This document shows, one piece after another, positions 1 through 37,109 of a stretch of DNA of 64,000 nucleotides. The position numbers and the translations under genes are program-made. The stretch lies in the NCBI GenBank assembly GCA_964016885.1, contig OZ024740.1:322586001-322650000 (forward strand). Direction: 5' to 3'. Position 1 is the stretch's first letter. Each line of letters starts with the position of its first letter. This DNA comes from Eledone cirrhosa (Eukaryota). A model generated the notes under the pieces. It saw only the letters and a list, made by a program, of their open reading frames with translations. It had not been told where the DNA came from and did no database searches.

Positions 1-845
1 GTTAAAAACTTTGTGGGTATTCACCAAGTCCATTGCCAGACGTCGGAGCTTCAATGAATCCATGCCCAGGGAAGCAAGGCGTTCAGAGTATGGTAGGTGT
101 CTGATGGAGGGTATTCGCTTGGTTGCACGTCTCTGAACAGTTTCCAGGAGGTCAATGTTCCGAGCAAGATAGGGGTTCCAGACTGATGATGCGAATTCCA
201 AGTGTGGTCGCACCATAGCTGTATACAGTTTTAAATAGATGGCTGGAGAGCGGCTAACAAAGGTCTTGCTGAGTGATGCCAAGACACCCTCGGCCTTCTT
301 GACAATCTTAGAGACATGCTTTGTCCAACGCAAATCGTTGCTGACAGTAATGCCCAGGTCACGTTCACAAGAGGACTTTTTGATGTCAGTGTTGTGGAGG
401 GAGTATGTGGACGCTGGATTTTTCCTTCCAAAATGCATGGTGGTACACTTGTCCACAGCCAGCTTCAGTTGCCAGTCTGTGATCCATTGCTGCATTGTGT
501 CCAGGTCTGATTGTAGGAAAGAGTTGTAAATTTCAGGATCAGTCCTTTTGATTTCAAGGTACAGCTTGATGTCATCTGCATATTTTAGTACCGTGGCATT
601 CTGTAAGTTGGCATCTATGTCATTAATATATGCCACAAACAAAAGAGGACCAAGAACAGATCCCTGTGGTACACCAGATGACATCTCATATGGTGAAGAA
701 TGCTGTCCTAGAACCGTGACTACTTCTTTTCGGCTGAGAATGAAGGATTTCAGCCAGTCGAAAAGATCATCCCTCACACCCATTGCAGAGAGTTTTGCCA
801 TAAGTCTTTTGTGTGGCACAGAATTAAAAGCCTTTTCCACTGGAC
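1..845 (-). mobile_element. CR1/L2/Jockey-group LINE reverse transcriptase fragment, in BUD23 intron 1
   Basis: Minus strand reads SGVPQGSVLGPLLFVAYIND...YADDIKLY and, further on, LYTAMVRPHLEFASSVWNPYLARNIDLLETVQRRATKRIPSIRHLPYSERLASLGM. These are typical CR1-group RT and C-terminal motifs. 5'-truncated and continues off the window edge. Confidence 0.85.
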
Positions 846-1112
846 TGACAGCTAATAGCAGTATCAATAATGGAAAACCAAAAGGAAACACTGTTTCCTT
901 GGTCCAATCTAACGATAGCCCCCTTTTAAGGCAACGAAAGGGTTAGGAGCAGAGCTATAGCGAGTTATTGAAGCACGTGTCTTCTGATATGAACAAACCT
1001 AATGTTGGACAAAGATATAACTTTCAGAAGACACTCATCGTTGTTTCTAATAAAACAGATATTTCAATGCTATAAAAAAACATCAAATGTATTTATTGAT
1101 GAAATAACTTAC

Positions 1113-1157
1113 AATTTCTGGTGGAGCTTGTCTCTCTGGTCGACCACTAGCTGCCAT
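1113..1157 (-). CDS. BUD23: Coding exon 1 of 18S rRNA (guanine-N7)-methyltransferase BUD23/WBSCR22; remaining exons lie left of the window
   Basis: Minus strand aacATG GCA GCT AGT GGT CGA CCA GAG AGA CAA GCT CCA CCA GAA ATT|gtaagt encodes MAASGRPERQAPPEI followed by a consensus phase-0 donor. This matches the conserved BUD23 N-terminal RPE-x-x-x-PPE motif (human MASRGRRPEHGGPPEL). Only 15 codons are visible. Confidence 0.85.
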
Positions 1158-1386
1158 GTTGATATTTTTATTTAAGAAAGTAAAGCTAGCAATTTCTAAA
1201 TATATTTTCTTTAATAAAACTTTATACTTTCATCAACATTCAAACAATAATAATCAAATGTCTTGTCTTAAAATGTGTTTTAATTATATATATACATAAT
1301 ATATATATAATATATATATTCCTTTGTTAAATTTATATGCATGTGATATATGTAGTTTCGGAGATAACTGCCAGCTGAGGTCACTT
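1158..1386. promoter_or_regulatory. Putative bidirectional promoter / 5' UTR interval between BUD23 and DNAJC30
   Basis: 229-bp AT-rich spacer between two divergent ATGs. No specific motif identified. Confidence 0.6.
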
Positions 1387-2268
1387 ATGATGGCCTTCGC
1401 AAATTCCCACATCTTGTACAGAACTTTTTTAATTTCTCATAAATTTAACGGCAAATCTGGTTTTCGGAGTATTTGTCCATCAAAGGCTCGATATTTTCAC
1501 CGAAGAAAGATTCTCCAGAATGGATTCTATTGCAGTAATTTACCACTGGAGTATTATGTAAGCACGAAAGAACACGTCTATGGTCTGTTAATTAGTAAAC
1601 AGAAATGTCCTTATAACACATGCTGCCTAACTAGGAGAAATATTTGGACTTATCAAAACAAACACACTACTACATTTAAACTGTCGTTAGATAATCAGAA
1701 ATGGAATTCTGTTCGGTTTTTAAATTCTCACGGTAAACGTGGTGGGCAAAAATTTGACAGAAAAAGCCGAAACCTGTTTGATATTTTAGAAGTAACTCCA
1801 AAGTCACACAAATCGGATATTAAGAAATCGTTTTACCGTTTGTCTAAACTATATCACCCAGACATGAATAAATCAGATGAGGCGGCTGTAAAGTTTGCGG
1901 AAATTTCTGCAGCTTACGAAGTACTGAAAGACCCGACAAAACGTCGGTTATATGAGAGAGGAATGGTAATTTCAAATGACAGACATGTACATCATCAGGA
2001 TATACATAAGAGTACATCTGTCAATGCTGAAGAATATTTCAATAGTCACATTAGTGAAAAATCACGGGTTAAGAGACGTGCTATAAGCCAAGATAATGAC
2101 TTTTGGTTCTATTATGCATCTATGAAGGACTCGAGGAAATATAGCCACGAAAATATTGACACTGTTTTAAAGTCATATAAGGAAGATGAACAATACAGAA
2201 AAAGGAAAGGATTTTTGGGTGGCACTTTTGTGTGTGCATTCTTATTGGCAGTTTTCTTAATGAAATAA
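1387..2268 (+). CDS. DNAJC30: Intronless DnaJ subfamily C member 30-like mitochondrial J-domain protein (293 aa from first in-frame ATG)
   Basis: Basic, Ser/Phe/Arg-rich N-terminus resembling a mitochondrial presequence. J-domain NLFDILEVTPKSHKSDIKKSFYRLSKLYHPDMN...KFAEISAAYEVLKDPTKRRLYERG with the HPD motif. Single C-terminal hydrophobic segment GFLGGTFVCAFLLAVFLMK. AATAAA near 2495. The ORF-track start at 1324 is TTG; the first ATG is 1387. Head-to-head position with BUD23 supports the DNAJC30 identity. Confidence 0.85.
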   Translation: MMAFANSHILYRTFLISHKFNGKSGFRSICPSKARYFHRRKILQNGFYCSNLPLEYYVSTKEHVYGLLISKQKCPYNTCCLTRRNIWTYQNKHTTTFKLSLDNQKWNSVRFLNSHGKRGGQKFDRKSRNLFDILEVTPKSHKSDIKKSFYRLSKLYHPDMNKSDEAAVKFAEISAAYEVLKDPTKRRLYERGMVISNDRHVHHQDIHKSTSVNAEEYFNSHISEKSRVKRRAISQDNDFWFYYASMKDSRKYSHENIDTVLKSYKEDEQYRKRKGFLGGTFVCAFLLAVFLMK

Positions 2269-4360: not shown

Positions 4361-7300
4361 CTGAAAATAGACATATTACAGAATACAACATTATATACAG
4401 AATTACTTTACAGAATACAGCATATTATATTATCAGTGAATTTAACTTTGCCTTTCATCCTTACAGGGTCGATAAAATAAAGTTCCAGTAATACACTGGG
4501 TAATTGCTGGCCTTGTGCCAAAAGTAGAAACAATTATATTATCAGTGAATTGTTAGAGAACATAAATTAGACATCACACAGTCTAAACCAAAATTGGGGA
4601 GCCATTTCATGTTGCAAGGCCACATTAAGTTACTTGTAATATAAGGCCGCATTCAAGAAATCATAATTATATATTCTTAAAATTTTGATACTCACTGGTG
4701 CACTAAATCCCCACGAGTTTTCACCAACCAGCTTTGGGTGATAGTAGCTCCAGTCAAGCGAGAATTTAATGCACATTCTAGAATCGCATTAGAACTAAAA
4801 CATGAGCGCAGAAAGTGTTGAACTGGCCCTTATTATCTAATTTTTAAATGCTGGCTGTCTGTCAATGTGGATTATTTTGATGAATTTTCTTTTACTCTTT
4901 GGTATTTAAAATACATTCATCTTCATCATCATCATTTTACGTCTGCTTTTCCCTGCTTGCAAGAGTGGCACGGGTCTTATTCAGCACAGCATCTCTCCAC
5001 TTGTCACGGTCCTTCGTCATCTCCACCATGAGCTTCAATGATCTGTTCTCACCACCTCCGCCCATGTTTCTCGTGGTCTACCTCTACCACGTCTTCCTAC
5101 AACTGGCATTTCCTGGCACTTCTTCACCCATCGGTCATCCTCCATGCGCATCACATGTCCATACCACCTCAGTCTCCTCTCTCGCACACTACATTCTATC
5201 CCTCTCAGAAACGGTTTCTCTCTCAACACATTTATGCTGGGTCGTTCACCCACATTGACATTGCACATCCAACGGAGCATGCTTGCCTCATTTCTCTCCA
5301 GCCGTCGCATATCCTCTGCAGTTGCTGCCCATGTCTCACTACCATGCAGCATCGCGCTCCTTACACAGGCATCATATAACCAGCCTTTCGTACGCAGGGA
5401 GAAACCCTTCTTCATCAGCAGAGGAAGCAGCTCCCTAAACTTCTTCCAACCCGTCCTTATTCTAGATACTATGGCCTTGGAACACCCCCCACCCATGCTA
5501 ATCTGATCTCCTAGGTACCGGAAGTTATCCACGACTTCTATAGCACCCGCCTGCATTTGAAAAATGTGTCTATCAGTGCGACTTCTACTGTCTAATTTCC
5601 CTGTACATCTACTGCATACGTATTTCTCCCTACCTGTTAGTTTGCCTGCTATCCCACTACAGCTCTTGTGTACCCAGGATCTGCATTGTGAGCATTTTAT
5701 AGAATTTATGCCAGTTCCTTTCCTGCATATCGAACATGGCCATTTCCCTGACGGAATCAGAGTTTTGTCCTCTTTTGAACTCATCAGCACTTTTGTCTTA
5801 GCTAGATTTACTCTCAGTCCTCTTGCTTCCAATTGCTGTTTCCATAGCCAGAATTTATTCTCTAGCTCCTCTACTGATTCTGCTATAAGAACCAGATCGT
5901 CAGCATAGAGAAGTTCCCATGGACAGCCAGTCATAAACTCCTCTGTTATGGCTTGGAGGACTATAATGAACAAGAGCGGGCTGAGGACCGAACCTTCATG
6001 TACTCCTACTTGTATCTGGAATTCCTCACTAAACTCCAGTCCTACCCTGACTTTACTGACAGTATCTCTGTACAAAGTTTGCACTGTCCTCACAAGCCAT
6101 TCCTTAACACCTAGTTTCCTTAGTGACCACCAATGACAGATCGGGGTACCCTATCAAAGGCCTTCTCTAGGTCAACAAAGGCTAAGTATAGTGGCTTATT
6201 TTTCTCTAAGAACCTCTCTTGTAATTGTCTCACCAAGAAGAGGGCATCTGTTGTACTCTTCCCAGACACCAAACTGCATCTCATCTAGTTTGACCCTTTC
6301 TCTAATTAGTTGTGCTAATATCCTTTCTGCCACTTTCATAACCTGATCCATCAGTTTTATACCTCTATAATTGCTCCTCTCCAGAGCATCCCCTTTACCT
6401 TTGTAGCAATTTATGAGAATACTGCTACATCAGTCTTTGGGTATGACACCACCATATATAGCTTGATTGATGATGCATGCAACCAGTTTAGTGCCTATGT
6501 CCCCTGAAGCCGTCAGCATCTCAGCAACTATCCCCGATGGTCCAGCAGCCTTACCATTTTTCTTATCGTTTAAATTAAAATAAAGGGCTGATGCGGTATA
6601 AAAAGGTTAGTGTGAGCTTGTCTTGTCCATTTTCTTTCTTTTCTCCATTCTTCCTATCACTTCTATGGGCCAACAGACTTCTAGCCATTGAGGTAAATTT
6701 TACCCAATGTTGTCATTGACAGTATTTTGTCATTTTAACAGCTTCCTTGTGTTGAATTCTTCTCATTATTCTATGAATTCTAAAACACTCGCACTCAAAC
6801 TTTATATATTAATAAGAATTAAGAATTTGTTGGAAATTTTTGATTCTTTTAAAAGTCCACAGATTCCCCATCTCTGGTCTAAACACTTTATGATAATAAT
6901 AAACTTCACATTTTCAAATACTTACAATACTAAAACTTTCCATGATAATTTTATCTAAGAAATGTTTGATTAGTAATGTTCCAAACATCAGCTTACAAAT
7001 TACAGATTTAATTATTTTATTAATTTGTTCCAAATTTTGATTAGTTTCAAAATTAGAAATATGATAATAAAAGGGTTAACATTAAGGTTGGCATCACTGT
7101 TTTATTTTCAAGTTAAACACTGTAGCCTCACTAAGTTAGCAATTACATGGCACATATGGGGCAAGTCATCATTATCACCATTTTACATTCATTTTTCCAC
7201 ACTGGCATGATTTGGATGGAGTGACATAAGTTGAGACTAGACAGGTCAGATGGCCATGTCTTGCTCATATGTTCCAAGTGCCTTCTACTATTTATTACTT

Positions 7301-32538: not shown

Positions 32539-34179
<1,641 letters not shown>

Positions 34180-34266
34180 ATATATATATATATATGTGCA
34201 TGTATGTATGTATGTATGTATGTATGTATGTATGTATGTATGTATGTATGTATGTATGTATGTATG

Positions 34267-34314
<48 letters not shown>

Positions 34315-34435
34315 TACACCCATTATATATCAAAATACATTAACGGAGTCATAACCTCACCTTTGTCTCCGTAAAATAAGAGCTCCCTGTACATTGATAA
34401 ACACACACACTCTCTCGTGCGTTATCTTTTCTACA

Positions 34436-34480
<45 letters not shown>

Positions 34481-34532
34481 ATGTGTACATGTAATAATGT
34501 ATGTATATATGTATGTATGTATGTATGCATGC

Positions 34533-34572
<40 letters not shown>

Positions 34573-35747
34573 CAAAGGAATTGTGGTAAGGAACCAGAAA
34601 TAGCCGTCGAGCTTGAGCTCTGCCGTCGGCGTCATACTTTTTCCTATATATATATATATCGATTATGATATCTCCAACAGCAACAGAATTTTGATTGAAA
34701 ATGTCTATGTAGCTACCAAACAGTGTAATACGTACATTTCCATTTGAGTGAGTGGGTTTTGCTTGTGTGTATATTTGTGAGATGCGATAGTTGGAGATAT
34801 ATGTACGTATGTATAGCGTACGAAATTGTATTATCTTGGAGATGGCTGACGAAGAAAATAAATGCTTTTGTTCGTTTCTCCTTCGTGTCGATATTTGATA
34901 ATAGTAATAACAATACTTTCTGATTAAGGCACAAGGCCAAAAAGTTTTGGGGAGGGGAAAGTCGATTAAATCGACCCTAAACCGTGACTGGTTTTTTTAT
35001 TTTATCGACCTCGTTTAAATGAAAGTCAAAGCTACCTTGGCGGGATTTGAACTCAGAACGTTAATGATTGCAACTGGATGCAGTAACGACTCTGCCAATT
35101 CAACGCTCTCGTATAGCGGAGGTAAAAATATATAATTGTTTCTACTTTTGCCACAAGGCCAGCAATTACCCAGTGTATTACTGGTACTTTATTTTATCGA
35201 CCCCGTAAGGATGAAAGGCAAAGTTAACCTTGGCGGGATTTGAACTCAGAATGGCAAGGGCCGTAACTCTATGCGTCAAAGCATGGCGTCCGAGCCCCTA
35301 CGTTAAAAATATATAATATATGGTGGAGAAAGGAAATGATTACCTTGATAATAACGTAACTAGCCGCAACTCTATGCCGCAAAGCAGGGTGTCCGACGCT
35401 CTACCGATACTGCCAATAATAATAATAATAATTGTTTCTACTTTTGGCACAAGGCCATCAATTAACCAGTACATTACTGGTACTTTATTTTTTATCGACC
35501 CCGTAATAATAATAATAATAATAATGTTTCTACTTTTCCTTGGCACCATGCCAACAATTACCTAAGTGCATTACTGGTACTTTATTTTATCGACCCCGTA
35601 AGGTTGAAAGGGAAAGTTAACCTCGGCGGGATTTGAACTGAGATCATAAAGGGCCATAACTCTATGCTGCAAAGCATTTTTGTCAGACGCGCTACCGATA
35701 CTCCCAAACCACAATGGTTTCTGATTTAGACACAAGGCCATATACTC

Positions 35748-36125
35748 TTAGTTACACACTGTCCCAGTTAATGACCTATTAGTGTCACATTGTCCCAGTT
35801 AATGAACTGTTAGTATTACACTGTCCTAATTAAGGACCCCTTAGTGTCACACTCTCTCAGTTTGATGACCTTTTAGTATCACACTGTCCCAGTTAATGAA
35901 CTGCTAGTGACACACTATCCCAGTTAATGACTTGTTAGTGTCACACTGTCCCAGTAAATAAACAATTAGTGTTACACTGTCTCAATTAATGACTCCTTAG
36001 TGTCACACTCTCCCAGTTAATGACCCCTTAGTATCATACTCTCCCAGTTAATGACACCTTAGTGTCAGACTCTCCCAGTTAGTGAACTCTTACTATCACA
36101 GTGTCCCAGTTTATGACTAACTAGT
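35748..36125. repeat. Minisatellite, 31-bp unit (TAGTGTCACACTGTCCCAGTTAATGACCCCT), ~12 copies
   Basis: Direct tandem periodicity visible. Confidence 0.9.
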
Positions 36126-36236
36126 GTTTATGGAAAGTTTTCAGTGTATGACTGGTATTAAAGACCATACAAAAATTAATTGGAAAATTGTTATCTTAAC
36201 TCGAAATATAAAGGGATATACTTTAAGCAAATAATT

Positions 36237-36697
36237 GTATTGTTGCTGCTGTTGTTGCTGCTGGTGCAGTCGCAGCTGTTGTTGTTGTTGCTGTTGTTGT
36301 TGTTGCTGTTGTTGTTGCTGTTGTTGTTGTTGCTGTTGTTGTTGTTGGTGTTTTTCATGTTTTTACTGTTTTGCTGATGCTGTTTTGTTGCTGCTGTAGT
36401 AGCAGCTGTTGTTCTTGCTATTGTTGTTTTGGCTGTTGTTGTTGCGGCTGTTGATGCTGTTGTTGCATTAGCAGCTGTTGTTGTTTCTGTTGCTGTTGTT
36501 ATTGTTGTTGTTGTTGTTACTGTTGTTGCTGTTGTTGCTGTTGTTGTTGCTGTTGTTGTTGTTGTTGTTGTTGTTGTTGCTGTTGTTGTTGTTGTTGCTG
36601 TTGTTGTTGTTGTTATTGTTGTTGTTGTTGTTATTGTTGTTGTTGTTGTTGTTGCCGCTGTTGCTGTTGTTGCTGTTGTTGTTGTTGCTATTGTTGC

Positions 36698-36731
<34 letters not shown>

Positions 36732-36865
36732 ATTGCTGTTGTTGTTGTTGATGTTGCTGTTGTTGTTGTTGTTGTTGTTGCCGCTGTTGCTGTTGTTGTT
36801 GTTGCTGTTGTTGCTGTTGTTGCTGCTGTTGTTGTTGTTTTTGTTGTTTTTGTTGTTGTTGCTAC

Positions 36866-36924
<59 letters not shown>

Positions 36925-37043
36925 TTGCCGCTGTTGCTGTTGTTGTTGTTGTTGCTGTTGTTGCTGTTGTTGTTGTTGTTTTTGTTGTTTTTGTCGTTGC
37001 TGTTGTTGTTGCTGCTGCTGCTGTTGTTGTTGTTGTTGTTGCT

Positions 37044-37109
<66 letters not shown>

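Follow-up and report, generated by a model that had tools for sequence, protein, structure and literature searches.

A head-to-head BUD23–DNAJC30 gene pair in the octopod Eledone cirrhosa, likely sharing a promoter of cnidarian-bilaterian ancestry

Within a 64,000-nucleotide stretch of the Eledone cirrhosa genome (G000:C1:322586001-322650000 of the 3.0-Gb assembly; hereafter the window), a 15-codon exon and an intronless J-domain gene start back to back. A first-pass annotation, made from the letters alone, had read them as BUD23 (WBSCR22) and DNAJC30 (WBSCR18), the divergent neighbours of the human Williams-Beuren locus at 7q11.23. We were interested in whether the two genes are what they seem, how far their arrangement reaches among animals, and what might hold them together. 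BUD23 is the 18S rRNA m7G methyltransferase, which methylates an 18S guanine in a TRMT112-dependent manner during small-subunit maturation. We consider it probable that BUD23 and an intronless DNAJC30, lying head-to-head 229 bp apart, are divergently transcribed from one shared promoter of cnidarian-bilaterian ancestry. The features of the locus are as follows, in window positions unless stated otherwise.

1157-1113, minus strand: BUD23 coding exon 1, ATG plus 14 codons, MAASGRPERQAPPEI, with the phase-0 donor gtaagt
1-1112, minus strand: 5' end of BUD23 intron 1 (full length 54,028 bp), skipped in a run X4 contig
1-942, minus strand: high-copy reverse-transcriptase fragment, presumably LINE-type from its motifs, an open frame within intron 1
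G000:C1:322533084-322506570, minus strand: BUD23 exons 2-11, left of the window
1158-1386: intergenic gap, ATG to ATG, 21% GC, the presumed shared bidirectional promoter
1283-1323: TA microsatellite inside the gap
1387-2268, plus strand: diverged DNAJC30 orthologue, 293 aa, an intronless single ORF
1387-1506, plus strand: presequence-like N-terminus, aa 1-40, with 8 R/K and 0 D/E
1771-1956, plus strand: J domain with intact HPD, aa 129-190 (Pfam DnaJ, E 1e-20)
2206-2262, plus strand: C-terminal hydrophobic segment, aa 274-292, mean Kyte-Doolittle 1.95

The short exon with its gtaagt donor, 229 bp from the ATG of the J-domain gene, was present as the first-pass annotation had described it. A search of both strands over 184 kb gave a single occurrence of the exon-plus-donor pattern, and the exon is genuine, not a chance match. 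Motif searches in 120 kb of fetched sequence located ten further BUD23 exons 54–80 kb left of the window. The resulting model comprises 11 coding exons (45, 38, 96, 83, 97, 97, 51, 86, 105, 93, and 52 bases plus stop) and ten introns, all GT-AG, and encodes 281 codons with no internal stop. Exon 2 opens with the F-Y motif that had been predicted to follow exon 1. A 797-nt contig from run X4 spans 1113-1162 and then joins exon 2 directly at 1113; therefore, the splice is real. Because this contig skips intron 1, we took run X4 as RNA; the RNA-like evidence consists of contigs from one run, which cannot show strand or start.

Judged by sequence, the match of the model to named BUD23 proteins is full-length, with identities of 91% to O. 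bimaculoides, 75% to Sinanodonta, and 69% to Branchiostoma BUD23. Its spliced frame is intact, with an RPE-x3-PP motif in the N-terminal part and a basic tail at the C-terminus. In PDB searches, exon 6 matched the human and yeast BUD23 chains, and a query of exon 1 with five intron codons found none. A Pfam PF12589 search of the Eledone genome found no match, but as its control was likewise without a match, it carries no information. A genome-wide search for BUD23 with 11 candidates left one multi-exon gene and one distant intronless paralogue only. This paralogue (L138:2042-2878, plus strand; G000:C3:323871541-323872377) is open for 279 codons, lacks the tail, has a longer N-terminus, and shares 30% identity with BUD23 over residues 6-205. 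In the atlas, it resembles methyltransferases of Asgard archaea (0.97) and eukaryotic 18S m7G methyltransferases (0.96), and it is possibly an old retrocopy or a member of a separate animal subfamily. Elsewhere, the echinoderm and tubeworm BUD23 models P0093, P0470, P0471, P0474, and P0132 have N-terminal extensions of ~40–95 residues before the usual start, possibly due to wrongly chosen upstream ATGs.

On the other side of the gap, a second run X4 contig, unspliced and gapless over 1363-2465, spans the J-domain gene, the frame of which is intact. Pfam identified DnaJ alone in the protein, with no DnaJ zinc finger or C-terminal domain. The layout matches that of DNAJC30 in its basic N-terminus, its C-terminal membrane-type segment, and the absence of introns, as judged from composition, hydropathy, and the unspliced contig. 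The N-terminus is predicted to direct mitochondrial import, and the hydrophobic segment at aa 274-292 is likely a membrane anchor. Two canonical DNAJC30 queries found this locus as their best match in the Eledone genome, with alignments extending past the J domain. A DNAJC30 profile built from 53 family sequences, octopods left out, scored the locus at 117.5 bits (profile positions 20-218); the runner-up of the 28 J-domain loci in the genome, where only the best candidates were scored, reached 85.5 bits. The part following the J domain reached 11.5 bits, compared with at most 4.2 bits in the 199 reported of 200 shuffles; the bivalve and coral proteins reached 85 and 60 bits. In a tree of 68 rows built without DNAJC4, the octopod protein fell within the DNAJC30 clade with support of 97/98; its long branch draws in four rows labelled as outgroup (81/71). 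The best genome match, the profile scores, and the clade placement support the naming of the J protein as DNAJC30.

There is a very small chance that the octopod protein is not the DNAJC30 orthologue (being, e.g., DNAJC4-like) or that the adjacency arose repeatedly. What speaks for this possibility is that all six octopod proteins lack the strict motif F-D-x-F-Y-x-x-H-Y downstream of the J domain, which 214 of 232 family sequences carry. The protein is also labelled "uncharacterized" in RefSeq, and a single-sequence PDB search ranked human WBSCR18 just eighth, on par with other J domains. Yet canonical DNAJC30 occupies the identical place, orientation, and intronless form at coral-type and other loci, and the bivalve DNAJC30 adjoins BUD23. 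Moreover, none of the candidates scored from the Eledone genome is better as DNAJC30, and a named DNAJC30 cluster is among the best three atlas matches of the octopod protein (0.96). With a family profile that includes the octopod rows, human WBSCR18 was the best PDB match. The full-length relatives of the protein, 4 of 51 matches, are octopod proteins with 52–60% identity, the nearest from Octopus and Argonauta.

We therefore treat the protein as a DNAJC30 that has diverged in octopods. The identity to O. bimaculoides is 57% for DNAJC30 vs. 91% for BUD23, and together with the loss of the strict motif, this indicates that octopod DNAJC30 evolves much faster than its neighbour. Within the region after the J domain (1957-2200, plus strand), two degenerate registers of the motif are possible by eye.

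The next question is how far the pair reaches. Consecutive accessions place the two genes side by side in O. bimaculoides (XP_014786889/890), O. vulgaris (CAI9715695/696), and Argonauta (GAB1599108/109), as do consecutive locus tags in the bivalve Sinanodonta (ACJMK2_012603/012604), where the J protein is canonical; such numbers are a proxy for neighbourhood in which orientation is not visible. In Lineus, Bicyclus, and tortricid moths, both genes lie on chromosomes of equal length with non-consecutive numbers, which leave adjacency undecided. The pattern of BUD23 exon 1 plus donor was found at 120 or more metagenome loci, 80 of those listed having flanks and 40 having at least 1,400 bases upstream. 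Among the matches listed, an intronless DNAJC30 stands head-to-head with BUD23 at five of these 40 long-flank loci:

L025, L033, L074, L068, and L072: head-to-head pairs, 133–855 bp ATG to ATG, with DNAJC30 as a single open frame in all five

The L025 protein shares 92% identity and a common 90% cluster with the DNAJC30-like protein of Orbicella faveolata, and L074 and L033 join L025 and Orbicella in the tree (100/99). Because of this clustering and grouping, we regard these loci as coral-type. L068 groups with sequences that we read as fish-like (99/88), and L072 is unplaced. BUD23 introns 1–3 occupy the same positions in L025 and the octopod gene. In the coral-type L074, BUD23 residues 28-281 form one uninterrupted exon, and the related L025 retains intron 3; the missing 3' introns of L074 reflect either loss by cDNA conversion or an assembly chimera. 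At a sixth locus, L098, a J-domain start lies head-to-head within 300 bp upstream of BUD23 exon 1. The L098 genome is compact, with a first intron of ~65 bases.

The pair is missing from the other 35 of the 40 long-flank loci, among the matches listed, which include three chance matches, many fungal- or protist-looking sequences, and nine rotifer-like loci, several of them near-identical. At a few animal-looking loci without the pair, other genes stand head-to-head with BUD23. Many lineages thus seem to manage without the pair. Three loci without DNAJC30 (L084, L059, and L038) have other long ORFs in this position within 250–750 bases, which from their motifs we take to encode a mitochondrial tyrosyl-tRNA synthetase, an RNF170-like protein, and a sulfatase, respectively; the BUD23 promoter may readily accept new partners. 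J-domain fragments on the same strand in L019, L040, and L041 did not look DNAJC30-like by eye and were left uncounted.

The layout thus recurs in distant animals. The occurrence of the pair in intermediate lineages, by gene numbers in a bivalve and directly on coral-type contigs, supports common ancestry of the octopod and distant instances rather than convergence. As coral-type loci carry the pair, it probably dates, on this comparison of sequences, to the cnidarian-bilaterian ancestor and is older than the bilaterians. The first-pass annotation, which had proposed a bilaterian ancestor, was right that the pair is ancient but understated its age.

The 229-bp gap is close in length to the gaps of human (203 bp) and the coral-type loci (133–180 bp). 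The human gap has a CpG island, whereas the octopod gap is AT-rich, with a TA microsatellite and no CpG island, and the first intron of the octopod BUD23 is 54 kb long. In a scan for eight promoter words, the octopod gap showed TATA-like words only. No promoter motif was common to this gap and the other gaps, and the octopod gap lacks the YY1-like words seen at the coral loci. A bacterial promoter scan, a model unsuited to an animal, gave one site vs. 3.1 expected. At 1162 and 1363, the run X4 contigs terminate with no loose end, whereas DNA contigs run on, a weak hint from one study.

The surroundings are rich in repeats. Contig depth is ~90,000–136,000 at 700-867 vs. ~9 over the gene pair. 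BUD23 intron 1 holds at least seven patches of LINE-like sequence, and high-copy repeats start no more than ~250 bp from exon 1 and ~400 bp past the DNAJC30 stop. That the gap stays short beside these flanking repeats fits selection against insertions. Elsewhere in the window, a long low-complexity tract of trinucleotide-type repeats with extreme AT and GC skew occupies 33000-42200, and the frames at 5035-6150 (minus strand) and 43868-45511 (plus strand) are, from their motifs, presumably retroelement-like reverse transcriptases.

The pair itself is not new. In Table S2 (row 8) of Touceda-Suarez et al. (2020; PMC7530604), DNAJC30=WBSCR22 is one of 52 ancient head-to-head co-expressed pairs, non-paralogous; from data of Irimia et al. 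(2012), it is given the code 01011010, with conservation in four of eight non-vertebrate species, and human co-expression. It comprises the same two genes in the same head-to-head, non-paralogous arrangement as here. The passages of PMC7530604 on which we draw name no cephalopod, and our survey adds the octopod instance and the coral-type loci in which the layout was seen directly. The divergent human pair at 7q11.23, which had been assumed, is documented by Li (2006; PMC1487180), with transcription starts 117 bp and coding sequences 203 bp apart. The supplements of that paper score the arrangement as head-to-head for human, mouse, and chicken but not for the fugu orthologues; they report co-expression in one of three data sets, r of 0.68 in Jurkat cells, and "CoFunction: No". 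A figure legend of a catfish paper places WBSCR22 within the dnajc30a block, and both gene names are missing from two supplements of PMC13508932. Among the matches listed in our literature searches, no paper is devoted to the pair in invertebrates; further sources are PMC9023564, PMC10298715, PMC10502022, and PMC4277396.

Human and octopod loci are alike in their divergent orientation, their similar coding gaps, their one-exon DNAJC30, and a BUD23 of 281 aa. The octopod DNAJC30 differs in its longer N-terminus and decayed C-terminal motif. More broadly, the pair belongs to a known class. As the parts of Irimia et al. (2012; PMC3514665) cited here describe it, the CAMP co-regulation class unites housekeeping genes in conserved 5'-5' orientation less than 1 kb apart, e.g., HSPE1-HSPD1, and of 595 such pairs, 593 are traced to the origin of bilaterians and no fewer than 378 to that of eumetazoans. 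Our pair has conserved 5'-5' orientation and gaps of 229 bp here and 133–855 bp at the five loci; where a CAMP calls for at least four lineages, it occurs in vertebrates, molluscs, cnidarians, and two further unplaced animals. It resembles HSPE1-HSPD1 in 5'-5' orientation, a gap below 1 kb, and housekeeping nature. However, HSPE1 and HSPD1 work as parts of a single machine, whereas BUD23 and DNAJC30 are not known to share a function. Because the deep conservation is already tabulated, our results add cases and not a new principle. What they add is the pair in an octopod, its direct observation at coral-type loci, and the decay of the motif in octopod DNAJC30.

What, then, keeps the two genes together? 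In the explanation we prefer, one bidirectional promoter in the 229-base gap would drive both genes, each relying on the upstream DNA of the other as its promoter; such sharing is likely. This mutual dependence would keep the gap short, insertions and breaks there being selected against, and the first intron of BUD23 would be free to swell to 54 kb. The link would be housekeeping co-expression under a constraint in cis and would not require joint action of the two proteins. A simpler account by passive inheritance, in which the genes once became neighbours, perhaps through a DNAJC30 retrocopy landing behind the BUD23 promoter, and the gap of a few hundred bases was rarely broken, partly overlaps with this explanation and appears quite improbable on its own. 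It draws on the single open frame of DNAJC30 at all five fully seen metagenome loci and its one exon in human, and on a chance of only 0.02–0.3% that a break falls within 229 bases over 300–600 million years, calculated from published inversion rates that count detected inversions only. Such a gap is too small a target for random breaks, and many microsyntenies are kept, 275 metazoan ones in Euprymna according to the published count; thus, survival through cephalopod rearrangement is not the surprise that it had been taken for. Passive inheritance nevertheless leaves unexplained why the gap never expanded despite the repeats ~250 bp and ~400 bp away.

It is conceivable, though unlikely, that the promoter was kept for co-dosing as a functional regulon, BUD23-dependent ribosomes favouring the translation of mitochondrial proteins and DNAJC30 maintaining the respiratory chain. 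According to the published parts we cite, BUD23 loss in mouse heart lowers mitochondrial content and function, with an allele deleting exon 7, away from the shared promoter (PMC7002040), and human DNAJC30 is a mitochondrial J-protein in complex I repair and subunit exchange (PMC7954600). Both genes are discussed jointly for mitochondrial defects in a Williams-Beuren model, and mitochondrial genes also occur in further pairs of the PMC7530604 table (HADHA=HADHB and IMMT=MRPL35). But Li (2006) scored no co-function, the pair is missing from many long-flank loci, and octopod DNAJC30 drifts fast while BUD23 does not. Coupling between ribosome and OXPHOS functions is possible but best regarded as speculation. 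A fuller version is more doubtful still: a promoter more than 600 million years old would form a regulon tying small-subunit ribosome maturation to respiratory-chain repair, in which octopods kept the promoter and rewired the chaperone. Were this so, the octopod loss of a C-terminal motif that is otherwise kept from corals to fish would mean an altered client surface on complex I.

Returning to the shared promoter under cis constraint, the locus provides a concrete invertebrate instance of a gene pair from the Williams-Beuren deletion, both members of which are associated with mitochondrial phenotypes. The coral-type loci add direct sequence evidence for the same layout in corals. If the host of L098 is an early-branching animal, the age of the pair would be pushed further back. 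For octopods, a protein labelled "uncharacterized" in RefSeq gains the name DNAJC30, and the AT-rich gap of 229 bp offers a small, testable candidate bidirectional promoter for work on cephalopods.
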